From a virus (taxonomy: Duplodnaviria; Heunggongvirae; Uroviricota; Caudoviricetes), in the IMG/VR virus record IMGVR_UViG_2563366958_000018: 52,177 nucleotides of DNA; one strand, written 5' to 3'. Numbering within the stretch: the stretch's first letter is position 1; each line of letters begins with the position of its first letter. Below the pieces are notes generated by a model that saw only the letters and a list, made by a program, of their open reading frames with translations, had not been told where the DNA came from and made no database searches. The position numbers were made by a program, and so were the translations under genes. This document shows positions 1-52,177 of this stretch, in pieces.

Positions 1-3000
1 ATGCCTGTCGACTTTCTAACCTCTGACCAAAAACAGAATTACGGTTGTTATGCTGCAGAACCTAATGACGTGCAACTGGCGCGCTATTTTCATCTTGATG
101 AACGGGATCTGGCCTTCATTAACCAACGACGGGGCAAACATAATAGGCTGGGCATTGCGCTTCAGCTCACCACAGCCCGTTTTCTGGGAACATTTCTGAC
201 GGATTTAACTCAGGTTCTGCCTGGTGTTCAACATTTTGTCGCGGTACAGCTTAATATCCACCGTCCAGAAGTTCTCTCCCGCTATGCTGAACGGGACACT
301 ACCCTTAGAGAACATACTGCATTAATTAAGGAATATTACGGCTATCATGAATTTGGTGATTTTCCATGGTCTTTCCGCCTGAAGCGTCTGCTATATACCC
401 GGGCGTGGCTCAGTAATGAGCGACCGGGTCTGATGTTTGATTTTGCCACTGCATGGTTGCTTCAAAATAAGGTATTACTGCCCGGAGCAACCACACTAGT
501 ACGTCTCATCAGTGAAATTCGTGAAAGGGCAAATCAGCGGCTGTGGAAAAAGCTGGCCGCACTGCCGAACAAATGGCAGGCAGCTCAAGTGATGGAGCTT
601 CTGGTCATTCCGGAAGGTCAGCGTGTATCAGCACTGGAACAGTTGAAAAAAGGCCCTGTTACAGTCAGTGGACCTGCGTTTAATGAGGCGCTGGAACGAT
701 ATATCCGATTACGAAGTCTTGAGTTTTCCCGACTGAACTTTTCCGGTCTGCCTGCCATTCAACTGCGTAATCTGGCTCGTTATGCTGGCATGGCGTCGGT
801 AAAATATATCGCTCGAATGCCACAGCAGAGAAAGCTTGCTGCACTTACTGCATTCGTTAAAGCACAGGAAATAACGGCATTAGACGATGCCGTTGATGTG
901 CTTGATATGCTAATTCTGGACATTATCCGCGAAGCAAAGAAAACCGGGCAAAAAAAAAGACTCAGGACACTGAAAGATCTTGATCAGGCCGCATTGTTAC
1001 TGGCGCGGGCATGTGCATTGTTGCTGGATGATAATACAGATGTCCCAGATCTCAGGCAGGTTATCTTCAAGTGCGTACCCAAAAACAGACTGGCAGAATC
1101 TGTAAGCAAGGTTAATGAACTTGCTCGTCCACAGAACAATAATTTCCATGACGAAATGGTTGAGCAGTACGGTCGGGTTAAACGTTTTCTTCCGGCGGTG
1201 TTGCGGGACCTGCATTTCCGTGCGGCACCGGCAGGTGAACATGTACTGGCTGCGATTCATTATCTGGCAGAACTGAATGGTTCGAAAAAGCGCATCCTTG
1301 ATGATGCGCCTGAACATATTATCACCGGTCCCTGGAAACGCCTCGTATACGATGCGGAGGGACGGATACAGCGTGCAGGTTATTCACTATGTTTGCTGGA
1401 ACGCCTTCAGGATGCACTGCGCCGCCGGGACATCTGGCTTGAAAACAGTGATCGCTGGGGAGATCCTCGCGAGAAGTTGTTGCAAGGTGAAGAGTGGCAG
1501 ACTCAGCGTATTCCTGTCTGTCGGGCACTGGGACATCCTGTCGATGGACGTAAAGGTGTGCAACAACTGGCTATTCAGCTGGATGAGACCTGGAAAGCCG
1601 TGGCATCACGATTTGAAAAGAATGCGGAAGTTCATATCTGTAATGAAGGTAAATATCCATCCCTGACTATCAGTTGTCTGGAGAAACAGGAAGAGCCACC
1701 ATCATTGCTTCGTCTAAATAATCGGATCAAACAGCTACTCCCACCGGTAGATTTAACGGAACTGTTACTTGAGATAGATGCCCAGACAGGATTTACACAT
1801 GAGTTTGCGCATGTCAGTGAATCTGGTGCTCGAGCGCAAGATTTGCACATCAGTTTATGTGCGGTATTGATGGCTGAAGCCTGTAATATCGGACTGGAGC
1901 CGCTGATAAAGCACAATATACCAGCACTGACCCGCCATCGGCTCAGTTGGGTGAAACAGAATTACCTTCGTGCAGAAACGCTGGTCAGCGCCAATGCCCG
2001 CCTGGTTGATTTTCAGTCCACACTGGAGCTTGCTGGTCGTTGGGGAGGTGGAGAAGTGGCATCAGCTGACGGCATGCGCTTTGTCACACCAGTGAAGACC
2101 ATCAACTCAGGATCTAACAGAAAATATTTTGGTTCTGGACGAGGCATCACCTGGTATAACTTCGTATCTGATCAGTACTCTGGGTTCCATGGCATTGTGG
2201 TACCCGGTACATTACGGGATTCGATTTTTGTACTGGAAGGACTTCTTGAGCAGCAGACAGGGCTGAATCCAGTTGAAATCATGACAGACACTGCGGGTAG
2301 CAGCGATATTATTTTCGGTCTGTTCTGGCTACTGGGGTATCAGTTTTCCCCCCGGCTTGCCGATGCAGGTGAGGCGGTGTTCTGGCGGGTGAATAAATCG
2401 GCAAACTACGGAGTACTGGATAAGTTGGCCCGAGGATATGCAGATCTGTCAAAAGCGGAGAGTCAGTGGGATGAGATGATGCGAACCGCTGGTTCGCTGA
2501 AGTTGGGTACAATTCATGCGTCAGAACTCATTCGCTCTTTACTGAAAAGCTCGCGCCCATCAGGACTGGCACAGGCAATTATGGAAGTAGGGCGTGTAAA
2601 CAAAACGCTATATCTCCTCAATTATATTGATGATGAAGATTATCGTCGGCGGATCCTGACGCAGCTTAATCGAGGAGAAGGCCGCCACGCTGTGGCTCGT
2701 GCGATTTGTTACGGACAACGCGGAGAGATCAGAAAGCGTTATCGTGAAGGGCAGGAAGATCAACTGGGGGCGCTGGGCCTGGTTACTAATGCAGTGGTTC
2801 TGTGGAACACGCTCTATATGGAGGAAGCGTTGAGCTGGATGCGCCGTAATGGCGAAGAAATTATAGATGAAGATATCGCTCGGCTATCTCCCCTGATGCA
2901 CGGGCATATCAATATGTTGGGCCATTATACATTCACGTTGCCAGAGGATATTTTAAAAGGGGAACTGAGAGCTCTAAATTTAAATATAAACAACGAATTA

Positions 3001-3009
3001 TCTCCTTAA
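1..3009 (+). CDS. tnpA: Tn3-family transposase TnpA (Tn1000/gamma-delta-like), 1002 aa
   Basis: Full-length ORF starting MPVDFLT; conserved Tn3-family TnpA blocks (RPGLMFD, GGGEVASADGMRFV, LSPLMHGHINMLGHY); stop codon lies inside the terminal IR as in Tn3-family elements. Confidence 0.9.
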   Translation: MPVDFLTSDQKQNYGCYAAEPNDVQLARYFHLDERDLAFINQRRGKHNRLGIALQLTTARFLGTFLTDLTQVLPGVQHFVAVQLNIHRPEVLSRYAERDTTLREHTALIKEYYGYHEFGDFPWSFRLKRLLYTRAWLSNERPGLMFDFATAWLLQNKVLLPGATTLVRLISEIRERANQRLWKKLAALPNKWQAAQVMELLVIPEGQRVSALEQLKKGPVTVSGPAFNEALERYIRLRSLEFSRLNFSGLPAIQLRNLARYAGMASVKYIARMPQQRKLAALTAFVKAQEITALDDAVDVLDMLILDIIREAKKTGQKKRLRTLKDLDQAALLLARACALLLDDNTDVPDLRQVIFKCVPKNRLAESVSKVNELARPQNNNFHDEMVEQYGRVKRFLPAVLRDLHFRAAPAGEHVLAAIHYLAELNGSKKRILDDAPEHIITGPWKRLVYDAEGRIQRAGYSLCLLERLQDALRRRDIWLENSDRWGDPREKLLQGEEWQTQRIPVCRALGHPVDGRKGVQQLAIQLDETWKAVASRFEKNAEVHICNEGKYPSLTISCLEKQEEPPSLLRLNNRIKQLLPPVDLTELLLEIDAQTGFTHEFAHVSESGARAQDLHISLCAVLMAEACNIGLEPLIKHNIPALTRHRLSWVKQNYLRAETLVSANARLVDFQSTLELAGRWGGGEVASADGMRFVTPVKTINSGSNRKYFGSGRGITWYNFVSDQYSGFHGIVVPGTLRDSIFVLEGLLEQQTGLNPVEIMTDTAGSSDIIFGLFWLLGYQFSPRLADAGEAVFWRVNKSANYGVLDKLARGYADLSKAESQWDEMMRTAGSLKLGTIHASELIRSLLKSSRPSGLAQAIMEVGRVNKTLYLLNYIDDEDYRRRILTQLNRGEGRHAVARAICYGQRGEIRKRYREGQEDQLGALGLVTNAVVLWNTLYMEEALSWMRRNGEEIIDEDIARLSPLMHGHINMLGHYTFTLPEDILKGELRALNLNINNELSP

Positions 3010-3042
3010 CGTACGTTTTCGTTCCATTGGCCCTCAAACCCC
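3005..3042. repeat. 38-bp Tn3-family terminal inverted repeat (Tn1000-like)
   Basis: CTTAACGTACGTTTTCGTTCCATTGGCCCTCAAACCCC is the reverse complement of a GGGGTTTGAGGGCCAATGGAACGAAAACGTACGTTAAG-type IR; overlaps the tnpA stop. Confidence 0.85.
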
Positions 3043-3843
3043 GATCTTTACGAGGTTGACGTAATAGTCATGGGGTAAGTTTGTCATGGTGATAGTTCCC
3101 TTAAAGGTTAAGGATACTCACCACCGTCTGGTTCCAATCATTGGGTGGTGAGACGTACAGGGTTGGAACTACCGGTCACCATGGAATCCGGCGAGTCTTA
3201 CGACTCCCCCGCACGCCCCACCATAATTTGGGTGTAGCAGTGCTTTACGCATAAAAAAACCGCTAACGCGGTATGCGCCATGATGATTATCGGGGTTCCA
3301 ATCCCGACCGTAGATTTTGCTACGGCTCGGAAAGTGTCCACCAATGGCGCATTCATGTCAATACGGCGGGATTTTAACAGAGACAACCACATAGCGTGGG
3401 TTTATTGGTAGGCAGAAACAAAAAAACCGCCCTATTGAGGACGGTTCTTTCGTGCTGATCGGATTCGCGGTCCTTTCAGCATAACGTCGTTGTATAAACA
3501 ACCACGCAAGCACAAGCAGCAAGTTAATTTTACCCAAAAGGTAATAATAGTCCACTATTATGCTTCAAAAAATTGTGGTTCTTGTTGTGCCTGCAAACTC
3601 ACAGATTGTGGGTAGGTTACTGATTTTGTGAAAATAAACGAGTTTTTTCGTTTAATTTCTTTCCTATTACTAATCTTAAAATAATCGTAAAATACCTGTG
3701 GACCTTCCCGCCGATTCGCACCCGGGCACCGACTTTAGGGGAGGATTCTCCGTTGCCGTACATGCAAGCACAAGCAGCCGTGCTTGCTCTCGCGTTGTTT
3801 TCGTCGGTGGGGATGCCGTGAAACGGCCTGTAAGGGCCATACA

Positions 3844-3966
3844 ATGAAAAAATACTGTATGTGTATTTTTATCGTTGTTACTGGGGCTTTGTTTACGCCA
3901 CATGGGGAGGGTTGGAAGATTACTGATAACGCTCTGAATGTGACGATAAACATTAGCAGCAAGTAG
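3844..3966 (+). CDS. Small hydrophobic ORF (40 aa, MKKYCMCIFIVVTGALF...), hypothetical
   Basis: ATG with weak upstream purine tract; single hydrophobic segment; followed directly by a strong hairpin plus T-run. Confidence 0.2.
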   Translation: MKKYCMCIFIVVTGALFTPHGEGWKITDNALNVTINISSK

Positions 3967-3971
3967 CGATT

Positions 3972-3995
3972 AGGCCCCTTCGGGGGCCTTTTTTA
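3972..3995 (+). terminator. Rho-independent terminator
   Basis: AGGCCCC-TTCG-GGGGCCT stem followed by TTTTTT. Confidence 0.5.
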
Positions 3996-4004
3996 TGGTT
4001 GAAT

Positions 4005-4154
4005 TTAAACGCTGGAGCGCATTAAGCCTTTCAGAACTGCTTCACGTACCCATTCTGGCCTGGTGGATAGCAGGGCAAATAAGCGACCAGCTTTCAGCCG
4101 TTTGAGGTCGGTTAGACGAGTTTTCAGTAACCGTGTATATTGTTGCTCGGACAT
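4005..4154 (-). CDS. Small basic hypothetical protein (49 aa, MSEQQYTRLLKTRL...)
   Basis: ORF with strong RBS (AAGGGGA-N7-ATG) downstream of the partition operon. Confidence 0.35.
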   Translation of the reverse strand: MSEQQYTRLLKTRLTDLKRLKAGRLFALLSTRPEWVREAVLKGLMRSSV

Positions 4155-4216
4155 AACAAATTCCCCTTGTTGTGTCGCGACGGCCAACAGTTGGCGCTGG
4201 AGGCCGTCACCTTCTC

Positions 4217-4465
4217 TTACTTCTGGTTGTATTGAGCCTTGAGTAACTCAAAAGATTTTGTCAGCACTTCTTTCAATGACATATCCATTGAGCTGGCGAA
4301 CGTTTTGTACTCGCGTTTAAATTCAGGGTCGACGTTAAACGCCATTTGTGCCCCACCTGATTTGGTTCTGGTTGGCGTTTCAGTCGGGTCGAAAACCTGC
4401 GGTTGTTCGATCGATGGCGGTACGCCTTTGCTGTTCTTCTTTGGTGGTTTTGATGGTCCGGCCAT
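4217..4465 (-). CDS. ParG-like ribbon-helix-helix centromere-binding partition protein
   Basis: 82 aa, disordered basic N-terminus and C-terminal RHH-like segment (MAFNVDPEFKREYKTFASSMDMSLKEVLTKSFELLKAQ); directly downstream of ParA-like ATPase; strong RBS. Confidence 0.55.
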   Translation of the reverse strand: MAGPSKPPKKNSKGVPPSIEQPQVFDPTETPTRTKSGGAQMAFNVDPEFKREYKTFASSMDMSLKEVLTKSFELLKAQYNQK

Positions 4466-5722: not shown

Positions 5723-5737
5723 ACCACAAAATGTGGT
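5723..5737. promoter_or_regulatory. CI-type operator (ACCAC-AAAAT-GTGGT), OL-like
   Basis: Perfect 5+5 inverted repeat matching the operator consensus seen in the cI-cro intergenic region. Confidence 0.5.
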
Positions 5738-5779: not shown

Positions 5780-6436
5780 TCATAACCAGTTGACAACACT
5801 AACTACGCGGCCAAGAACTTTATAACGCTTAAATTCCTCGTTATTCAGATGCTTAGTGTTCATTTCAGCATCCCTTTCGGTTGACAGCATAACAGCATTG
5901 TCACCCGGTATGACTCTACAGTGCCTCAAAACAACCAGGCCATTTCTGTCTTCAAGGGCATAGATCCCCTCATGAATCTCTGTATCGTCTGTATTAATCA
6001 GGACTTGGGAGCCTGGGGATATTGTTGGTGACATTAACTCATCGTTGCTCTGGAGAACTGACAGAGACGATGGGTTGATGTTCTTGCTTCGTAGAATCTC
6101 CTGTTCTATCGCCAGCACTGGCTTTTCTCCGGCGTGCGATGCTATGTCATTTTTTATAGCTACAAGCCCAGGAATAACAGGAGCGTTAGTATTCTGGGGT
6201 GGGAACGGGTTATCTGTTAAGCACGCGATATAAGGCGCTGATGCTTTCAGGGCGTGCGCGATTTTCTTGATGGCAGGTATAGATGGTTGTCTTAATCCGG
6301 CCTCATAGTTCTGCAAGGTGCTTAAGCCTATTCCAGTGACTTGCTGGAGATCTCCGGCAGTCATGCCGGATTGTTTCCGTAGAGTCTGAATGCGCAGACC
6401 TATTTCTTTCTTGATGTTCTCGTCGTTGCTTTTCAT
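5780..6436 (-). CDS. cI: CI-like phage repressor (XRE-type HTH + S24/LexA-like autopeptidase domain)
   Basis: N-terminal HTH (LRKQSGMTAGDLQQVTGIGLSTLQNYEAG), Ala-Gly cleavage-site candidate, Ser (LMSPT) and Lys (KVLGRV) of the S24 dyad; divergent from the Cro-like gene. Confidence 0.85.
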   Translation of the reverse strand: MKSNDENIKKEIGLRIQTLRKQSGMTAGDLQQVTGIGLSTLQNYEAGLRQPSIPAIKKIAHALKASAPYIACLTDNPFPPQNTNAPVIPGLVAIKNDIASHAGEKPVLAIEQEILRSKNINPSSLSVLQSNDELMSPTISPGSQVLINTDDTEIHEGIYALEDRNGLVVLRHCRVIPGDNAVMLSTERDAEMNTKHLNNEEFKRYKVLGRVVSVVNWL

Positions 6437-9010: not shown

Positions 9011-9130
9011 AAAATCTATAAATATATAATTATAGATTTATATAAAAAGTGCTTTACAGGTGGGAAAAAATTTCCTATGGTTATACCCGAAACCGAGCGA
9101 TACCCGCCCTGGTTAAACCGGAGAAATCTG
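9011..9130 (+). promoter_or_regulatory. Conserved promoter/operator/leader cassette, copy 1
   Basis: AT-rich palindrome + TTTACA-N17-TATGGT + 50-nt leader ending GGAG-N8-ATG; near-identical copies at 15968-16081 and 48828-48941. Confidence 0.5.
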
Positions 9131-10198
9131 ATGAATAAACAAGTAATTATTTCTGACTGGATCAACAACCCTAACAGCCTGTTAAGCACTGATACTGGCT
9201 ACCTATTACGCCATGTTAATGGTCGTATGGTCAAAAGCGATGAGCACGAAACCTTTTTCTTTGTTGAAGACGATGGGCGTATCTATGAGGATGGTTACTC
9301 TTATGAAGCCCAAACTGGTTGTATCCCTGCGGAGCTGGTGGATGTAACAGAAGATCTGCGCAAAGCATGGCTTGAACAGCAGCAGCGCGGAGATGATTAC
9401 GTAAACACCTATCAGGAACGCCAGAACGCGCGTCTTGCCCGATATATTGCTCGTGCAGAAAAAGCCAGAAAAGAAGGTGCGGTAGCGCATAAGCGAGCGC
9501 ATGACCTGTTGGATGTGATCCCGTTAGGCCAGCCGATTTTAGTTGACCATTATAGCGCGAAAGGCCATCGCCGCCGTTTGTCTAAAGCTGATGCGTTATT
9601 CAGAAAAGCGTTTGTTGAATGCGAAAGTAAAGCATCACACTACGAGAGCAAAGCCGCAGGTGTTGGTCGTAATGGAATTTCGTCTGATGATCCTGATGCG
9701 CTATTTAAGTTGCTTCGTAAGCTGCAAGGCTGCATGAAGTCACACGTCAAAATGAAGGCCGCAAATAAGGCCATTCGCAAATACAAAAAAGACCAAATAC
9801 AGCAGCTTTCTGCATTAATCGATCTCAGGTTTACAGAAAGCGAAGCCAAAGAGTTACTGGCCGGAGATTTCTGTGGGCGCATCGGATTCCCTTCATACGC
9901 ACTGAGCAACAATAACGCCGAAATCAAACGACTACAGAGCCGTATTAAGGAGCTTGAATCGGTCAAGTCTGTAACAGGAGCACAGCGCGAAGAATACGAC
10001 GGCTTTTCTATGGAGATAGATCCAGAGGATAACCGCATCCTGTTTTATTTCCCTGGCAAACCAGAGGCAAACATTCGTTCGCTGCTTAAATCACGCGCCT
10101 TTAAGTGGAGTCCAACCCGTAATGCATGGGTTCGCAAGATTACTCCAAACGCCCTGGCTGATGCCCGATATCTGAAAGAATCGCTATTGAAAGCCTGA
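9131..10198 (+). CDS. DUF3560-like protein (355 aa)
   Basis: GQPILVDHYSAKGHRRR and C-terminal FKWSP...NAWVR segments resemble DUF3560; start taken at the ATG after the conserved leader rather than the in-frame ATG at 9077. Confidence 0.55.
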   Translation: MNKQVIISDWINNPNSLLSTDTGYLLRHVNGRMVKSDEHETFFFVEDDGRIYEDGYSYEAQTGCIPAELVDVTEDLRKAWLEQQQRGDDYVNTYQERQNARLARYIARAEKARKEGAVAHKRAHDLLDVIPLGQPILVDHYSAKGHRRRLSKADALFRKAFVECESKASHYESKAAGVGRNGISSDDPDALFKLLRKLQGCMKSHVKMKAANKAIRKYKKDQIQQLSALIDLRFTESEAKELLAGDFCGRIGFPSYALSNNNAEIKRLQSRIKELESVKSVTGAQREEYDGFSMEIDPEDNRILFYFPGKPEANIRSLLKSRAFKWSPTRNAWVRKITPNALADARYLKESLLKA

Positions 10199-15000: not shown

Positions 15001-15076
15001 GGCCCCTTAGCTTAGTGGTTAGAGCAGGCGACTCATAATCGCACGGTCATCGGTTCAAATCCGGTAGGGGCCACCA
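15001..15076 (+). tRNA. tRNA with CAU anticodon, most similar to tRNA-Ile2 (ileX-type, lysidine-dependent AUA decoder); could also be a Met tRNA
   Basis: Cloverleaf folds: acceptor GGCCCCT/AGGGGCC, anticodon loop CUCAUAA, T-loop TTCAAAT, 3' CCA encoded. Confidence 0.85.
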
Positions 15077-15383: not shown

Positions 15384-15971
15384 ATGGAGGCAATTGCATT
15401 GTTTAATCTGATTTATGCAGATCCCCCCTGGGAATACAAAGATAAGTGTAAGGATGGGAATCGTGGAGCTGGTTTTAAGTATCCAACGATGAAAGCTGAG
15501 GATATTGCTCGTATTCCTGTCTGGCAGCTTGCTAATCCTGAATCGTGTTTGTTGGCCATGTGGTGGGTTCCGACTCAGCCAGAAGAAGCGTTGCTGGTGG
15601 TGAAAGCATGGGGATTCAGGCTTATGACCATGAAGGGCTTCACATGGAACAAATGTGGTAGCCGACAACCAGATAAGCTGGTGATGGGGATGGGGCATAT
15701 GACTCGTGCAAACAGTGAAGATTGCTTGTTTGCGGTAAAAGGCAAATTGCCGACCCGCCTTGATGCGGGGATCATTCAGTCGTTTACATCGCCTCGTCTG
15801 GAGCATTCTCGGAAGCCTGATGTGGTTCGTGACAAGCTGGTAAGGCTGTTAGGTGATGTTCCTCGTATTGAGCTGTTTGCTCGCGGTGATTTACCTGATG
15901 GTTGGCATGGCTGGGGCAACCAGTGCAATGGAGGTATCCAGTTGCATGATGCTCTCTGGCAAGTGGCATAG
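15384..15971 (+). CDS. MT-A70-family N6-adenine DNA methyltransferase (orphan)
   Basis: Catalytic DPPW motif (IYADPPWEY), 195 aa; no adjacent restriction endonuclease. Confidence 0.8.
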   Translation: MEAIALFNLIYADPPWEYKDKCKDGNRGAGFKYPTMKAEDIARIPVWQLANPESCLLAMWWVPTQPEEALLVVKAWGFRLMTMKGFTWNKCGSRQPDKLVMGMGHMTRANSEDCLFAVKGKLPTRLDAGIIQSFTSPRLEHSRKPDVVRDKLVRLLGDVPRIELFARGDLPDGWHGWGNQCNGGIQLHDALWQVA

Positions 15972-16081
15972 AATTATATAATTATAGATTTATATAAAAA
16001 GTGCTTTACAGGTGGGAAAAAATTTCCTATGGTTATACCCGAAACCGAGCGATACCCGCCCTGGTTAAACCGGAGAAATCT
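15968..16081 (+). promoter_or_regulatory. Conserved promoter/operator/leader cassette, copy 2
   Basis: Identical to copy 1 over ~100 bp. Confidence 0.5.
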
Positions 16082-16352
16082 GATGAAAGTACAAGACCGT
16101 GAAGTAGTAAAAAACCTCCTGCAATACCTGACCTCAAAAAACCTGACGGGCAGCGTTGAGTTCCGTGAAGCGTTAAAACATTTCAACGTCACTACGGTTT
16201 ATCGTTGGGAAAACAAACATTCTGAAAGACCGTATGTGGTGGATGTTTTTGCGCCTGATATTGAGTGCGGTTTTGAGCGTCATTCGTTCAAGGAGAAACA
16301 TTCTGCTGATTTTTTTTGTGAGGTTGTATGTGCGGCAGGAGATGATGAGTGA
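16082..16352 (+). CDS. Hypothetical protein (90 aa)
   Basis: First ORF after cassette copy 2. Confidence 0.45.
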
Positions 16353-35543: not shown

Positions 35544-36534
35544 AACGCTTTTTGATGTTATATATCAGAATGTAAATATTACCGCTCATATGTCACCTGA
35601 TGTTTTGTCAATGTCTTATACAGATAATGAAGATGGTCAGGTCGATGATATTTCTATTATATTAAAAAATGATGATGGGAAATGGTCTGGAGACTGGACA
35701 CCTAAAAAGGGTGATTTTATTGATTTGAGCTTTAAGCCTATAAATCAAATCGTCCTTGAGTGCGGGAAATTCCAGGTAGATGGCATAACTTGCTCTGGAC
35801 CACCTTCTGTGGTTGAGGTAACTGCTGTTTCTGTTCCTGTTTCATCAGGCATTAGACGTGATTTAAAAAGTAATGCATGGGAAAAAACAACTCTTAAAGA
35901 TATAGCAACTTCTATAGCTAAATTAGCTAACCTTGAACTGTTGTTTCTTATTGATGGTGATAGTAATCCATATTATGCGCGTGAAGATCAAATGGAGGAA
36001 AGCGATTTAAAATTTCTCCATCGACTTTGCCAGGATGAAGGGTTGTCGTTAAAGGTCACTGATAGCCAATTAATAATATTTGCTCAAGAGATGTTTGAGC
36101 AAAAAGATCCTATCGCTACGCTTACGTTAGGTATTGATGAGATAATCAGATATAGCTTTAGCACACAATCTACAGATTTGTATAAAAGTTGCACGTGCAA
36201 ATATCGCGTACCTAAAAAAAGAAAGTCGCTTTCGTATACTTGGGTAGATCCATCCGTAGAAGAAGGGTCGAATCTTAAGATAAGAAAACTGGTAGCTAAT
36301 TTAGATGAAGCAAAACGTAAGGCAAAGGCTGCTTTGCGGCTTAAAAATAGATATCAAAATACCGGATCTTTAGTATTGGTTGGAGACACCAGATTGGTAG
36401 CTGGTGTAACTATAAATCTGGAGGGATTCGGTTCATTTTCTGGAAAATATCTTATATCGAAAGCTGTGCATTCAATTGGGACTAGTGGTTATACCACCTC
36501 GATTGATGTCCGAAGAGTAATTAATGGGTATTAA
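35533..36534 (+). CDS. Baseplate hub/late control gpD-like protein
   Basis: 333 aa, position after tape measure and X; GTG start. Confidence 0.55.
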   Translation: MLRKTLFDVIYQNVNITAHMSPDVLSMSYTDNEDGQVDDISIILKNDDGKWSGDWTPKKGDFIDLSFKPINQIVLECGKFQVDGITCSGPPSVVEVTAVSVPVSSGIRRDLKSNAWEKTTLKDIATSIAKLANLELLFLIDGDSNPYYAREDQMEESDLKFLHRLCQDEGLSLKVTDSQLIIFAQEMFEQKDPIATLTLGIDEIIRYSFSTQSTDLYKSCTCKYRVPKKRKSLSYTWVDPSVEEGSNLKIRKLVANLDEAKRKAKAALRLKNRYQNTGSLVLVGDTRLVAGVTINLEGFGSFSGKYLISKAVHSIGTSGYTTSIDVRRVINGY

Positions 36535-39663: not shown

Positions 39664-42510
39664 GTGAGTAAATTATTATTTACGATGACTGACGCCGGGC
39701 GTAAGGCGCTGGTTAATGCCAACAAGACTGGAACAAATAAAGTTGAGATCGTTTCTGTTGGTTTAGGTAGTAGATATTATGCCACATCAACCACACAAAC
39801 AAAAATAACAGATGAAATAAAGCGACTTACCACAATAGGAGGCAAAGTCGTTTCTCCTGATACCATTCATGTAACTGCGAAGGATGATAGTAAAGATGAG
39901 TATGTTGTCCATACAATAGGTTTGTATACAAATAAAGGAACATTGTTTGCTGTATACTCGCAAGAACAAGTAATAATAAATAAAGCATCTTCTACAATTG
40001 CTTTAATATCAAGTGATATAGCAATTAAAAATCTTGATACTAAAAACATTACATTTGGTGATGTTGAGTTTATTAACCCTCCCGCAACCGAAACTGTTGT
40101 TGGAGTAGCAAGATTTGCTAATGAACAAGAAATTGATGCAGGTACAGATGATTCCCTGGCTGTTTCAGCAAAGCGGCTTAAGCAAGCTATTGTAAAACAT
40201 GAGCAATCACGTAATCATCCTGATGCAACTTTAACATCAAAAGGCATTGTTCAACTCAGTAATGCCACCAATAGCACGTCTGAAAAGCTCGCAGCGACGC
40301 CTAAGGCTGTTAAGGCTGCATATGACCTGGCTAACGCTAAATACACCGCACAGGACGCTACCACGGCGCGAAAAGGGATTGTTCAGCTCAGTAGTGCCAC
40401 TAACAGTACGTCTGAAACGCAGGCGGCAACGCCAAAAGCGGTCAAGGCAGCAAATGACAACGCAAATTCACGTCTGGCGAAAAATCAGAACGGTGCAGAT
40501 ATCCAGGATAAATCAGCTTTTCTGGACAATGTTGGCGTTACCAGCCTGACGTTTATGAAAAACAATGGCGAAATGCCGCTTGATGCTGATCTGAATACGT
40601 TTGGTCCTGTTAAGGCTTATTCAGGTATCTGGTCTAAAGCAACATCCACCAACGCAACACTGGAGAAAAATTTCCCGGAAGATAATGCTGTCGGTGTGCT
40701 TGAGGTTTTTGCTGCCGGCAATTTTGCAGGTACGCAACGCTTTACCACGAGAGACGGCAATGTATACATGCGTAAACTCGCCAATAAGTGGAATGGCACT
40801 GATGGTCCGTGGGGCGTATGGCGTCACACTCAATCTGCTACCCGCCCTTTGAGTACGACTATAGACCTGAATACGCTTGGAGCCGCCGAGCATCTTGGTT
40901 TATGGCGTAACAGTAGCTCAGCTATAGCTTCATATGAACGCAATTATCCAGAGGAAGGCGGCTTTGCTCAGGGGATGCTTGAGATCCTCGAAGGCGGAAA
41001 TTATGGAAGAACGCAACGTTATACCACTCGCCGTGGAAATATGTATGTCCGCTGTCTTGCGGCAAGCTGGGATGCATCAAATCCGCAGTGGGAACCGTGG
41101 TTAAGAGTCGGTCATCAGTCAGAGAGTCGTTATTACGACGGTGATTTGAATGATGTAACCTCACCAGGTATTTACAGCGTTACAGGTAAAGCGACCAACG
41201 GTCCAATACTGGACGGAAACGGCGTGACAGTCCTCGGTATTCTGGAGGTGTTGAGGCGCTTTGATGGTGTTAATGTATGGCAGCGTTATACAACTGCCGG
41301 AACAGGTACAACCCTTAAAGGCCGCACCTTTGAGCGCGTCTTTACCGGCAGCTCATGGAGCGAATGGCGGGAAGTCTACACCTCGTATTCACTTCCCCTG
41401 AATCTGGGTATCGGCGGTGCTGTGGCAAAGCTCACCAGCCTGGACTGGCAGACCTACGATTTTGTGCCGGGCAGTCTGATAACCGTTCGGCTTGATAACA
41501 TGACCAATATTCCCGACGGTATGGACTGGGGCGTCATTGATGGCAACCTGATAAACATCTCAGTCGGTCCGAGTGATGATTCTGGTTCGGGACGCTCAAT
41601 GCATGTATGGCGCAGCACTGTAAGTAAAGCCAACTACCGCTTTTTTATGGTTCGCATTTCAGGAAATCCGGGAAGCCGCACGATCACGACAAGACGTGTG
41701 CCAATTATCGACGAAGCTCAGACATGGATGGCGAAACAGACATTCAGCGGTGGTCTTTCAGGCGAACTATCCGGCAATGCTGCTACAGCAACAAAGCTGA
41801 AAACGGCAAGGACAATTAACGGCGTAAAATTTGACGGCTCGGCAAATATTGAAGCGTTTCCGCCAGGTGTTCCGCTGCCGTGGCCATCAGATACGCCACC
41901 TGCAGGTTATGCAATCATGCTGGGGCAGACGTTTGATAAGGCAGCATATCCGAAACTGGCTATTGCCTATCCTTCTGGTGTTATTCCAGATATGCGCGGC
42001 TGGACAATCAAGGGCAAACCCGCCAGTGGTCGGGCCGTATTGTCTCAGGAACAGGATGGCATTAAATCGCACACCCACAGTGCCAGCGCATCCAATACGG
42101 ATTTGGGTACGAAAACCACATCGTCGTTTGATTACGGTACTAAATCAACGAATAACACAGGTGCACATACCCATAATGTATCTGGTACTGCAAATAGTGC
42201 TGGCGCACATACTCATACCGTTCCATTAAGGAGACCAAACAGTGGCGGTATGAATTTCGACTGGCTGGATGGTTCATCAAGTGGCACGGTGGTGGGGAAT
42301 GGAACTGTGCCTTCTTCTGGCGCACATACCCACTCAGTATCAGGTACCGCTACAAGTGCTGGGGCACATGCACACACTGTTGGTATTGGCGCTCATACGC
42401 ACTCTGTTGCGATTGGTTCACATGGACACACCATCACCGTTAACGCTGCTGGTAACGCGGAAAACACCGTTAAAAACATCGCATTTAATTATATTGTGAG
42501 GCTTGCATAA
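39664..42510 (+). CDS. Tail fibre protein (P2 gpH-like N-terminal domain, His-box C-terminal repeats)
   Basis: [30 protein letters not shown]...[29 protein letters not shown] block closely resembles P2 gpH as recalled; C-terminal GAHTHxVSGTA repeats. Confidence 0.85.
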
Positions 42511-45637: not shown

Positions 45638-45652
45638 ACCACGTAACGTGGT
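45638..45652. promoter_or_regulatory. CI-type operator palindrome (ACCAC-GTAAC-GTGGT) in the repA promoter region
   Basis: Perfect match to the ACCAC-N5-GTGGT consensus (extended AACCAC/GTGGTT), about 40 bp upstream of the repA leader, overlapping a TATGAT -10 candidate. Confidence 0.4.
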
Positions 45653-48820: not shown

Positions 48821-48827
48821 CGCTCAT

Positions 48828-48941
48828 AGAATTATATAATTATAGATTTATATAAAAAGTGCTTTACAGGTGGGAAAAAATTTCCTAAGGTTATACCCGA
48901 AACCGAGCGATACCCGCCCTGGTTAAACCGGAGATAACCCG
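48828..48941 (+). promoter_or_regulatory. Conserved promoter/operator/leader cassette, copy 3
   Basis: Identical to copies 1 and 2 except a T-to-A change (TAAGG vs TATGG) and a divergent last 10 nt. Confidence 0.5.
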
Positions 48942-49322
48942 ATGAGCATGATTAAAATCCGCAAAAACGCTTTCCTTAAAATTCAAACTATCCTGGCTGG
49001 TTCTGTTGGCGTGATTTGCCGTTCTTCTTCAAGCCGCATCGATGACGGCTACGATGATGAGTATCGTTTGTCCTCGTGCGATGAGGCTTTAACCTGGCTG
49101 AAGGAGAATCAGGAACGTGCCCAGGTATATCTGGAAACAGAGAACGGCAATCAGATGCTCCGTATTAGCGGTCGTTATGGATTTGAAACCACATTCATGG
49201 CCTATTTTAATCAGGCTTACTTTGACAAGGAGTTGGCCTGGTACACTGATCGCATGAGCAAAAGCGAGCCAGCCCCGATTACACCGCCGAACGATAAACC
49301 ATTTTTATTCCTCGTTAAGTAA
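48942..49322 (+). CDS. Hypothetical protein (126 aa)
   Basis: First ORF after cassette copy 3. Confidence 0.45.
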   Translation: MSMIKIRKNAFLKIQTILAGSVGVICRSSSSRIDDGYDDEYRLSSCDEALTWLKENQERAQVYLETENGNQMLRISGRYGFETTFMAYFNQAYFDKELAWYTDRMSKSEPAPITPPNDKPFLFLVK

Positions 49323-51034: not shown

Positions 51035-52177
51035 TTATGGTCTGCTTTTCTGTGCCAGCTTATCAGCACATGTTTTTATCAGATCCTGTAGTGTCTTGGC
51101 TGGCAGGTTTGCATCCAGTACGCTGAGTATGCTGTTGTGATCAGCTTGGTCGACTACTTTGCCTGTCGGTGGTAGTAGCTTGAGCTGAGGATTCAGGTTT
51201 TCGTCAAAGCTGATAAGTGCTCTGGCGTTTCTGAGCAGATCAAGAAGTAAGGCTGATATCACATTTTCCTGAGTCATTGCTGGCAGATTTAGCGCCGCTT
51301 TGGTTTTCCCTGTTGCCTTGTCAAACGCCTTGATTAGTTCCTTCCTGTAGTTCGGTTCCGTTAATAGCCGATTATGCTCTGTTGCCGCGCGGATAATCGT
51401 TTTTTCCTGGTACAGTCGTTTAGCCAGATCACGCTCGTACTGTGTTTTTAACACGCTGCTGATAGCGTTAAAGGCTTCAATGTAGGCCAGCTTGATATCT
51501 TTCACGCTTGGACCGTCGATGCTCTCCATGAGCAAGGTAAATCCGTCTTTTGTCATGCGATAGATTGTTATTTCGCGGTCGCTTCCTTCCAGCGGTCGTT
51601 GCTCTTTAAAGAAGTGACGCGCCGCAGCCGTGCGAGGAATGCGTAGCGCATCGATGGCCATAACGATGGAATTGTTTGTGGTGCTGAATGCTTGGGCAAC
51701 ATCGGCTGAGGTTGTGAGTGGCTCGTTGTTGCACACTTTAATGTAAAACATCGGTTTGGCGTTGAGCGTATCGACAACCTCACGAGCATTGTTTGGCGAG
51801 ACGGTTACGGTCGCGGCCGTTTGCGCGTTCTGGCTGAAATAGCAGTCTTCCAGCCGTTCGAATACATCCCACGCCTGATCGGTTTCGAGCATTTTGGCGT
51901 GACGTGCAGCCCCGCGTTCTGTCCAGAGAATGAGGGAGCGGGCATTTTTACCAACTAACCCGATTGTTTCAGGTCTGTTCTTGAACTCGCGTAATTCGTT
52001 TTTTTCAATTTTAAAGTAATGCTTTCCGGCTATGAATCGCGTCGTGTTGTTCAGAAAGTTATCAGAAATGTTTTTGATTTTTGTTCCGTATAACTGCGCC
52101 AGAAGTTCAGTTGTAATAACGGGGATCTGGTTATGCAAGATAGGCTGTAGGGTGTTAACGGTCGGAAGCGTTTTCAT
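51035..52177 (-). CDS. Phage antirepressor (AntA/ORF6N-type N-terminal domain, Rha-like central region)
   Basis: 380 aa; N-terminal ITTELLAQLYGTKIKNISDNFLNN...RFIAGKHYF; start codon is the last three bases of the window so the true start may lie beyond it. Confidence 0.7.
   Translation of the reverse strand: MKTLPTVNTLQPILHNQIPVITTELLAQLYGTKIKNISDNFLNNTTRFIAGKHYFKIEKNELREFKNRPETIGLVGKNARSLILWTERGAARHAKMLETDQAWDVFERLEDCYFSQNAQTAATVTVSPNNAREVVDTLNAKPMFYIKVCNNEPLTTSADVAQAFSTTNNSIVMAIDALRIPRTAAARHFFKEQRPLEGSDREITIYRMTKDGFTLLMESIDGPSVKDIKLAYIEAFNAISSVLKTQYERDLAKRLYQEKTIIRAATEHNRLLTEPNYRKELIKAFDKATGKTKAALNLPAMTQENVISALLLDLLRNARALISFDENLNPQLKLLPPTGKVVDQADHNSILSVLDANLPAKTLQDLIKTCADKLAQKSRP

Follow-up and report, generated by a model that had tools for sequence, protein, structure and literature searches.

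A phage-plasmid region that probably combines an antirepressor control module cut by Tn1000 with a complete timPR-type toxin-antitoxin locus

We analyzed the region at positions 3043-3994 of a 52,177-nucleotide stretch of DNA (hereafter, the window) from IMG/VR record IMGVR_UViG_2563366958_000018, a virus of the class Caudoviricetes that belongs to a lineage of phage-plasmids. The region is located between one end of the transposon Tn1000 (gamma-delta) and the partition genes parAB. An Rfam covariance scan detects three RNA families in this region, each matched over its full length and above the curated gathering score, namely, ryfA (E = 4e-37), C4 (E = 8e-16), and isrK (E = 1e-13), and terminator-like sites are in excess as well, with 7 observed against 2.1 +/- 1.5 expected. 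Together with the features listed in Table 1, these matches indicate that the region very probably consists of two modules of known kinds, each under RNA control and independent of the other: an antirepressor operon's control region, cut by Tn1000, and a complete timPR toxin-antitoxin locus.

A preliminary description had presented this stretch as a structured non-coding region and proposed that it held either small RNA genes or a type I toxin/antisense pair. The region is indeed structured but is not simply non-coding, and both proposals are borne out, the first by C4, the IsrK-like leader, the TimR-like RNA, and ryfA/timP (neither C4 nor IsrK was named in that description), and the second by a probable TimP homolog encoded in the ryfA/timP mRNA together with a TimR-like small RNA (sRNA) that ends at the hairpin at 3418-3450. 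The individual elements listed there are real as well: two minus-strand terminator-like hairpins (stems 3259-3272 and ~3427-3448, with T-runs), the Tn1000 end that precedes the region (the inverted repeat ends at 3042), the 40-codon open reading frame (ORF) at 3844-3966 that ends at a terminator (3972-3989), and the near-match to the CI operator at 3386-3400 (14 of 15 positions of the palindrome), which is conserved and sits at the upstream edge of the antirepressor operon. The 15-nt direct repeat is genuine too, albeit at 3506 and 3764 rather than at 3509 and 3765; its link to the antisense RNA is absent from that description.

The window, a myovirus-type phage-plasmid, encodes a terminase, a portal protein, a major head protein, a tail sheath, a tape measure, and a tail fiber, and it also encodes an antirepressor and a 218-aa CI-like repressor. 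Over bases 3043-4000, it shares 96-100% identity with 58 non-mobilizable plasmids (47-49 kb in size, with repA and parA), nearly all of them from Escherichia, and 86-90% identity with three Yersinia phage isolates, vB_YpM_39, 41, and 44; the conserved block of the region is also present in 8 IMG/VR contigs. The hosts of the related 47-49 kb phage-plasmids are E. coli, E. fergusonii, E. albertii, and Klebsiella. Both modules are kept across ~60 such phage-plasmids (47-49 kb) and the three Yersinia phages, and in every phage-plasmid and Yersinia phage record inspected, the three RNA genes and the toxin ORF are unannotated, with only 'none' or 'hypothetical protein' under the match.

Table 1 Features of the two modules and of the adjoining transposon end (window coordinates).
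Feature	Position	Strand	Evidence or comment
Tn1000 (gamma-delta) terminal inverted repeat	3010-3042	-	Exact 33-nt match, unique in the window
icd/orf45-like leader ORF, first 15 codons (MTNLPHDYYVNLVKI)	3043-3087	-	Truncated by Tn1000; translation compared with a relative
b2-type C4 target, GGAACUA + UCACCAUG	3085-3099	-	Spans the leader ORF's ribosome site and AUG
a2-type C4 target, GAUUGGAACC	3130-3139	-	10-nt direct repeat with 3294-3303; complementary to C4 GUUCCAA
C4 antisense RNA	3141-3228	-	Rfam RF01695, 84.3 bits (gathering 45), model 1-87/87
IsrK-like leader RNA	3253-3326	-	Rfam RF01394, 70.2 bits (gathering 50)
Intrinsic terminator of the leader	stem 3259-3272, T-run 3253-3258	-	Terminator scan
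Decoy sites in the leader	a1 3294-3303; b1 ~3278-3286	-	Covary with C4
Promoter-like element of the operon	3333-3361	-	TTGACA (3361-3356), 17 nt, GACACT (3338-3333); putative, read from the sequence
CI-type operator-like palindrome, ACCACATAGCGTGGG	3386-3400	.	14/15 positions of ACCAC-N5-GTGGT; predicted
TimR-like antitoxin sRNA, ~102 nt	3419-3520	-	Antisense element at the 5' end, GCUGCUUGUGCUUGCGUG (repeat copy 1, 3503-3520)
TimR-like terminator	stem ~3427-3448, T-run 3419-3426	-	Fold -21.3 kcal/mol; missed by a simple scan
Promoter-like element of the TimR-like gene	3527-3554	-	TGGACT, 16 nt, TAAAAT; start ~3520
Likely -10 hexamer of the timP gene, TAAAAT	3688-3693	+	Putative, read from the sequence
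timP (ryfA) mRNA, 297 nt	3698-3994	+	Rfam RF00126, 141.8 bits (gathering 80), model 1-296/296
mRNA stem-loops (SL)	SL1 ~3703-3745; SL2 ~3764-3787; SL4 3825-3838	+	SL4 holds the Shine-Dalgarno sequence
Pseudoknot arms	CACCGAC 3727-3733; GUCGGUG 3803-3809	+	K-12 arms CGCUGGC, GCCAGUG
TimR site (repeat copy 2)	3761-3778	+	66-83 nt upstream of the AUG
TimP-like small hydrophobic protein, 40 aa, MKKYCMCIFIVVTGALFTPHGEGWKITDNALNVTINISSK	3844-3966	+	NF040796 HMM alignment
timP terminator	3972-3989 + T-run	+	

Read on the minus strand from 3400 to 3043, the left part of the region appears to be the front of an antirepressor operon of the P1 immI / Gifsy-1 isrK type. The assignment of the leader RNA to the IsrK family follows from its score and from its context, that is, the RNA has its own terminator and lies upstream of a small ORF and an antirepressor; the c4-a1b1 model RF03163 overlaps the IsrK match and scores 38.2 bits, below its gathering threshold of 46.7. 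The C4 RNA is predicted to fold with a free energy of -44.3 kcal/mol such that both target-binding stretches are left unpaired. C4 GUUCCAA is complementary to UUGGAAC sites located upstream (3295-3301) and downstream (3131-3137) of C4, a complementarity that is reflected in the 10-nt direct repeat at 3130-3139 and 3294-3303. Two sequences are complementary to the C4 stretch CAUGGUGA, namely, UCACCAUG, which lies over the leader ORF's AUG, and a near-copy in the leader, and the b2 target as a whole is complementary to C4 positions 58-64 and 46-53.

The strongest evidence for an RNA switch is the three-way covariation of C4 with both of its targets among six relatives that represent three specificity types (Module A alignment, window positions 3043-3420 and relatives including L002 and L004-L007). 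In the b-type pairing, the C4 loop CAUGGUG, which is accompanied by CA(C/U)CAUG, is replaced by CAUUGUG, which is accompanied by CACAAUG, so that at b2 CACCAUG changes to CACAAUG. In the a-type pairing, GUUCCAA with UUGGAAC is replaced in plasmid JE86-ST05_p3 by AGGCUAA with UUAGCCU. This pattern implies that the phage-plasmid family encompasses at least three C4 specificity types, which would correspond to heteroimmune subgroups like P1 and P7. Related modules that combine isrK and C4 are common: with identities of 60-80%, they are found in more than 160 phage records, most of which are of lambdoid and Stx phages.

The promoter-like element upstream of the leader is unchanged in the six diverged relatives, and the start predicted from it, ~3326, coincides with position 1 of the IsrK model. 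The operator-like palindrome is kept in all six relatives (6/6) and marks the upstream edge of the conserved block, at which the flanks differ. Palindromes of the form ACCAC-N5-GTGGT are found in three copies between the CI-like gene and its divergent neighbor (the cI/cro intergenic region; 6474, 6557, and 6577) and at 5723, and with one mismatch allowed, there are 24 matches as against 6.8 +/- 2.8 expected. Far from the repressor gene, in or near late and other genes, there are further exact ACCAC-N5-GTGG palindromes at 35799-35813, 41023-41037, and 45638-45652. The short gap between the CI-type operator and the TimR terminator (3403-3414) accommodates an extra plus-strand gene in some of the relatives, namely, a 573-bp gene encoding an HTH/XRE protein (L004, 887-1459) in the plasmid of ATCC 25922, pHN68-3, and pO145_122715_2, and a 540-bp ORF (L002, 5496-6035) in phage vB_YpM_39, so that this gap looks like a hot spot for accessory genes.

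The point at which the operon is cut can be located to the nucleotide. Bases 1-3042 consist of tnpA and the inverted repeat of Tn1000 and are 99.9-100% identical to the copies in plasmid F and in other plasmids; the junction is at 3042|3043, where the backbone resumes at the position equivalent to 6001 of plasmid pMB9698_3 (L001), an intact relative that is 100% identical on either side of the insertion. In pMB9698_3, the leader ORF (5854-6045) is complete and consists of 63 codons, and its stop codon overlaps, by ATGA, the start of a gene for a 380-aa protein with ORF6N and Rha domains. This protein matches antirepressor families in PHROGs, and the leader ORF matches PHROG 7886 over its full length; for the 63-aa ORF, this is the only detectable family, with no match in Pfam or NCBIfam. 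In the window, the AUG of the leader ORF is at 3087, Tn1000 is inserted 45 nt downstream, after codon 15, and the truncated frame ends two codons inside the inverted repeat. The antirepressor gene starts at the far end of the window, away from its own control region. Thus, the promoter, the leader, C4, and its target are severed from the antirepressor gene, because Tn1000 lies 45 nt into the leader ORF. The preliminary description had suggested the remnant of a locus disturbed by the transposon and, as a check, a comparison with uninterrupted relatives: the disturbance holds for the C4-controlled antirepressor operon but not for the toxin/antisense pair, which is intact, and pMB9698_3 reveals the pre-insertion 63-aa ORF that spans 3043.

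We propose that transcription of the operon would start at ~3326, from a promoter that is preceded by the CI-type operator, and that most transcripts would end at the IsrK-like terminator (3253-3272). The read-through transcripts would include C4 (3228-3141), which would be excised from them. Via its two unpaired stretches, C4 would pair with a2 and b2 and thereby block translation of the leader ORF and, via the ATGA overlap, that of the ORF6N/Rha antirepressor, and the a1 and b1 copies upstream, in the leader, would compete for C4. Such a C4-type switch would keep the antirepressor untranslated in lysogeny and would set the specificity of immunity. In the Tn1000-bearing element, the control region should have ceased to drive expression of its antirepressor, such that the prophage-plasmid may be unable to induce via the antirepressor; C4, although cut from its gene, could yet act in trans. 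The element can be regarded as a natural insertion mutant in which an antirepressor is parted from its RNA switch.

The proposed arrangement closely follows that of P1 and P7, in which the immI operon has the gene order c4, icd, ant (PMC8546580, PMC6906374). As in immI, a processed C4 antisense RNA would precede its own targets within a single transcript, the paired sites are located upstream (a1, b1) and downstream (a2, b2), and b2 covers the ribosome site of a small leader ORF that is coupled to the antirepressor. Immunity of P1 and P7 is separated by base changes in C4 and its targets (PMC6906374), and here too, few bases in C4 and the targets appear to define the specificity type, as in heteroimmunity; furthermore, all are plasmid prophages with a myovirus-type virion (PMC8546580, PMC6906374). 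The likeness is one of layout; the antirepressor here is an ORF6N+Rha protein, and the element is ~48 kb rather than 94 kb in size, with its operon split by Tn1000. The isrK-orf45-anrP operon of Gifsy-1 in Salmonella has a self-terminated leader RNA and read-through to a small ORF that is translationally coupled to the antirepressor; a processed RNA that is stable lies between IsrK and this ORF (PMC4825925). The module described here shares with it an IsrK-family leader and terminator followed by a small ORF coupled to the antirepressor, which would be reached by read-through, and C4 would be the counterpart of STnc1160, the processed RNA of Gifsy-1 (PMC4825925). The two differ in that our module resides on a plasmid prophage whereas Gifsy-1 is integrated. 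IsrK of Gifsy-1 activates translation in trans, as the short leader RNA of our module might do.

The right part of the region (3419-3994) appears to be a complete divergent timPR type I toxin-antitoxin locus that was not touched by the transposon. The layout is the same as in E. coli K-12, where timR (100 nt, minus strand) is followed, after a gap, by ryfA (304 nt, plus strand), which encodes the 41-aa TimP. The ryfA-like mRNA is 61.5% identical to the K-12 gene, and a blastn search at a distant setting showed no link between the region and chromosomal ryfA, the relationship being seen only by the covariance model, the HMM, and direct alignment. The 5' untranslated region (5'UTR) of timP folds into four stem-loops, of which SL2 is the TimR site and SL4 holds the Shine-Dalgarno sequence, and a 7-bp pseudoknot between SL1 and SL3 is needed for translation (PMC11228461). 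All these elements are recognizable in the window. An RNAalifold consensus of 8 homologs recovers SL1 to SL4; across these homologs, 99.1% of the cells in the stem-loops and the pseudoknot are paired, compared to 40-50% in slid controls, and eight pairs are altered on both sides. The pseudoknot is paired in every homolog (100%), with 3 of its 7 pairs altered on both sides. In the K-12 chromosome, the spacer between timR and ryfA contains a 16-nt copy of the 5' end of ryfA (CGGCCCTTTCCGCCGT; L003, 2535-2550), which may be a remnant of a duplicated ryfA.

The TimP-like protein aligns from residue 1 to residue 40, that is, over its full length, with the NCBIfam model NF040796 (toxic_TimP), at 23 bits (E = 7e-5). 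The ORF starts at +147 of the mRNA, compared to +145 for the timP ORF of Salmonella (PMC7667032), and the protein has an N-terminal KK followed by a hydrophobic stretch. It shares 16 of 41 residues (39%) with K-12 TimP and is 50% identical to the TimP of plasmid pGDT4, which is annotated by RefSeq; the C-terminal half (GW.I..N...V.IN) resembles the copies on the conjugative plasmids pGDT4 and pJSRIV001_1 and not the chromosomal ones. These two plasmids, from Yersinia pseudotuberculosis and Serratia, respectively, carry complete timR/timP pairs (L008, 2356-2653, and L009, 2355-2657) that adjoin a gene of the phospholipase D family, and their ryfA matches score 235 and 214 bits. In the viral collections searched, homologs of timP and timR were found only in this phage-plasmid lineage.

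The 15-nt direct repeat is explained by the relationship between the two RNAs, because its copies are the two sides of the TimR/timP pairing site: on the minus strand, copy 1 is the 5' end of the TimR-like sRNA, and copy 2 is located in SL2 of the timP 5'UTR, in a position homologous to the K-12 TimR site. The exact 15-mer GCAAGCACAAGCAGC is found at 3506-3520 and 3764-3778, is one of just two 15-mers repeated less than 600 nt apart in the 52-kb window, and extends to 18 nt with one mismatch (3503-3520 / 3761-3778). The predicted duplex comprises 18 contiguous pairs (17 Watson-Crick and one G-U) at -35.5 kcal/mol, compared to -21.5 +/- 2.5 for shuffled sRNA ends; for the full-length sRNA and mRNA, the score is no better than for shuffles, and the signal is clear only when the comparison is limited to the sRNA 5' end. 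The cognate K-12 duplex is of about the same stability (-35.9 kcal/mol), and the two cross-combinations, at -21.9 and -18.9, are at background, so that the pair of the element should not interact with the pair on the host chromosome. Within the plasmid family, the two repeat copies covary at two positions, where AAGCAG is replaced by AAACAG, and CAGC by CGGC or CGGU, and the 170-bp intergenic spacer has diverged freely. The same arrangement recurs in ten loci, including those of pGDT4 and pJSRIV001_1, with the duplex at -88 to -60 from the AUG and at -36 to -49 kcal/mol. Aligned end to end with E. coli K-12 TimR, the TimR-like sequence is 62.5% identical and has the same GCUG 5' end; its body is conserved, the spacer past 3525 is diverged, and hexamers equivalent to those of the promoter-like element of the TimR-like gene are kept in all relatives.

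Under the mechanism that these features suggest, the timP mRNA would encode a 40-aa membrane-directed peptide, its Shine-Dalgarno sequence would be locked in SL4, and translation would be expected to need the SL1-SL3 pseudoknot, as in Salmonella. The stable mRNA would be silenced by binding of the first 18 nt of the TimR-like sRNA to SL2, such that TimP is not made; in Salmonella, TimR on SL2 destabilizes the pseudoknot needed for initiation (PMC11228461). In these respects the locus is similar to the chromosomal timPR (formerly STnc2070 / RyfB) of Salmonella and E. coli, with which it shares divergent adjacent genes for an sRNA of ~100 nt and an mRNA of ~300 nt, an sRNA 5' end that pairs with SL2 more than 60 nt upstream of the ribosome site, the four stem-loops with the SL1-SL3 pseudoknot and the Shine-Dalgarno sequence in SL4, and a protein of 38-41 aa whose N-terminus is charged and which has a signal-like hydrophobic segment (PMC7667032, PMC11228461). 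The differences are its location, beside parAB of a phage-plasmid rather than between sseA and sseB, the low RNA (~62%) and protein (39%) identity, a TimP score under the NCBIfam cut-off, the completely recoded pairing sequence, from which no cross-talk is predicted, and a timR-ryfA spacer of 177 bp compared to 399 bp in K-12. Plasmid R1's hok/sok system and other plasmid type I modules likewise combine a membrane-directed toxin mRNA, a sequestered ribosome site, and a short antisense RNA, and hok/sok is similarly placed in the maintenance region of a low-copy plasmid. There is, however, no homology to hok/sok, the antisense gene does not overlap the toxin gene, and neither a processing step nor a leader ORF (mok) is expected.

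The most likely role of the pair would be to stabilize the element by post-segregational growth inhibition, because the locus lies beside parAB on a low-copy prophage-plasmid and TimR is reported to be of lower stability than the timP mRNA (PMC7667032). We tentatively entertain a broader possibility, without considering it probable, that the copies on the phage-plasmids, pGDT4, and pJSRIV001_1 represent a mobile-element branch of timPR, with an antisense orthogonal to the host chromosome, that serves its element as an addiction or defense module, and that, separately, the prophage-plasmid might be non-inducible via its antirepressor. If such a branch exists, it would give a testable biological role to a toxin-antitoxin family of unknown chromosomal function. 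An unlikely, though by no means negligible, alternative is that the timPR-like pair serves phage biology, either by abortive infection of superinfecting phages or by membrane permeabilization at lysis. The element is a virion-forming phage, its family already has another addiction-type module (RelE/HigB-like) in addition to the partition system, and type I toxins have been tied to abortive infection, as in the case of hok/sok and T4 (cited in PMC13000454). However, the locus belongs to the plasmid-maintenance segment beside parAB and not to the lysis or late region, and homologous pairs reside on conjugative plasmids that are not phages.

With respect to the left half, it appears rather improbable that it is a decaying remnant, in which C4, the IsrK-like leader, and the operator have been dead sequence since the Tn1000 cut. 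Such an explanation would fit the physical separation of the antirepressor from its control region, which leaves nothing downstream of the C4 target to be regulated in cis. Nevertheless, the 361 bases at 3043-3403 are 100% identical to intact relatives, with no decay yet, and C4 could still work here, given that in P1 the C4 RNA works in trans, giving immunity to superinfection by relatives that share its specificity type (PMC6906374); a trans-acting short IsrK-type RNA could still work too (PMC4825925).

We consider it very doubtful that the ryfA-like transcript is mainly a regulatory RNA (RyfA), with an incidental ORF and a minus-strand RNA that modulates the levels of RyfA in the manner of RyfB. 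In favor of this explanation, the RNA model is matched far more strongly than the protein model, RyfA is described as an sRNA that affects stress resistance, biofilm formation, and virulence in uropathogenic and avian pathogenic E. coli (UPEC/APEC; PMC8205139, PMC10664665, PMC13188913), and RyfB1 is reported to lower RyfA1 levels in Shigella (cited in PMC7667032). Against this explanation, the ORF is open and in the same position, with the N-terminal pattern MK..C.CI..IV.GAL.T ... SSK, in every copy examined despite ~40% RNA divergence, and compensatory changes preserve both of the structures that control translation, namely, the pseudoknot and the SL4 hairpin over the Shine-Dalgarno sequence; in any case, a regulatory role of RyfA and a toxin role of TimP are not mutually exclusive. 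Equally remote is the idea that the hairpin at 3418-3450 mainly terminates plus-strand transcription from the left, as could be surmised from the plus-strand genes that stop just upstream of it in the ATCC 25922 plasmid and phage vB_YpM_39: the long unbroken T-run is on the minus-strand side, the U-G wobble of the minus-strand RNA (U-A in two relatives) corresponds to a C-A mismatch in the plus-strand stem, and the stretch from the hairpin to the repeat is homologous to TimR over its full length, although termination in both directions is possible.

Several points weigh against the interpretation of the region as a functional timPR locus next to a severed antirepressor switch. The TimP-like protein scores 23 bits, below the NCBIfam cut-off of 45, and the ryfA match (142 bits) is weaker than those of the other plasmid copies (214-235 bits). 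The putative operator is centered ~67 nt upstream of the presumed start and does not cover the promoter, so that repression by CI is not self-evident. In P1, a C1-controlled promoter is located upstream of a constitutive one, which we give as background and not as evidence. The operon promoter has a weak -10 hexamer (GACACT) and was missed by a consensus scan, and all the transcript ends are deduced from homology and consensus elements. As to the cut itself, the window lacks the second inverted repeat of Tn1000, the other 2.9 kb of the transposon, and 143 bp of the leader ORF; with the other end, the expected 5-bp target duplication, and these 143 bp outside, a simple insertion cannot be proved over an insertion accompanied by a deletion, and no record in the plasmid or E. 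coli genome collections contains the junction between Tn1000 and the backbone. To our knowledge, post-segregational killing has never been shown for timPR. The addiction role is not assured either, because Salmonella continues to grow when TimR is lost at native levels of expression (PMC7667032).

Both modules are members of described families, and our findings leave the understanding of either system unchanged. What is new is that a conserved but unannotated part of a phage-plasmid lineage is recognized as a divergent copy of timPR whose pairing is orthogonal. The TimP-like protein has probably never been annotated because its 23 bits are under the curated cut-off of 45. In the literature, timPR is treated as a chromosomal enterobacterial locus with an unknown physiological role (PMC7667032, PMC11228461, PMC13000454), and our literature search found no paper that links ryfA/timP with phages, plasmids, or phage-plasmids. 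The locus also offers a natural example of orthogonal TimR/timP pairs.

Some candidate features of the region were rejected. The minus-strand ORFs at 3198-3392, 3358-3555, 3617-3844, and 3676-3903 run across the RNA genes and are unannotated in the relatives inspected, and a TTG-extended, 60-aa form of the toxin ORF (3784-3966) was set aside, given that the TimP alignment begins only at the AUG at 3844. An Atu_C8 match at 3915-4003 (23.5 bits, E = 0.57), which overlaps the ryfA terminator, and a match to RNAI at 3419-3514 (26 bits, E = 0.21, gathering score 47), in the stretch homologous to TimR, were attributed to chance. A degenerate timR pattern retrieved 11 IMG/VR contigs, of which three (L014, L015, and L018) are chance matches in GC-rich coding sequence.

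Elsewhere in the window, we noticed several additional features. Each end of the window coincides exactly with a start codon (ATG), that of Tn1000 tnpA at base 1 and, in complement, that of the antirepressor gene at 52177, so that the window is probably an excerpt of a larger record. Immediately beyond timP, a 60-codon minus-strand ORF (4005-4187) is convergent with the timP terminator and lies between timP and a small parB-like gene (4217-4465); one of the relatives has an annotated hypothetical protein in the corresponding place (L006, 1808-1957). A tRNA gene is present on the plus strand at 15001-15073 (Rfam tRNA, 65.8 bits). Finally, there are three near-identical promoter/leader cassettes of ~118 bp (TTTACA-17-TATGGT ... 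GGAGAAATCTGATG) at 9017-9134, 15967-16087, and 48826-48945, each of which stops at the ATG of a plus-strand gene, which suggests that three operons share one control element.

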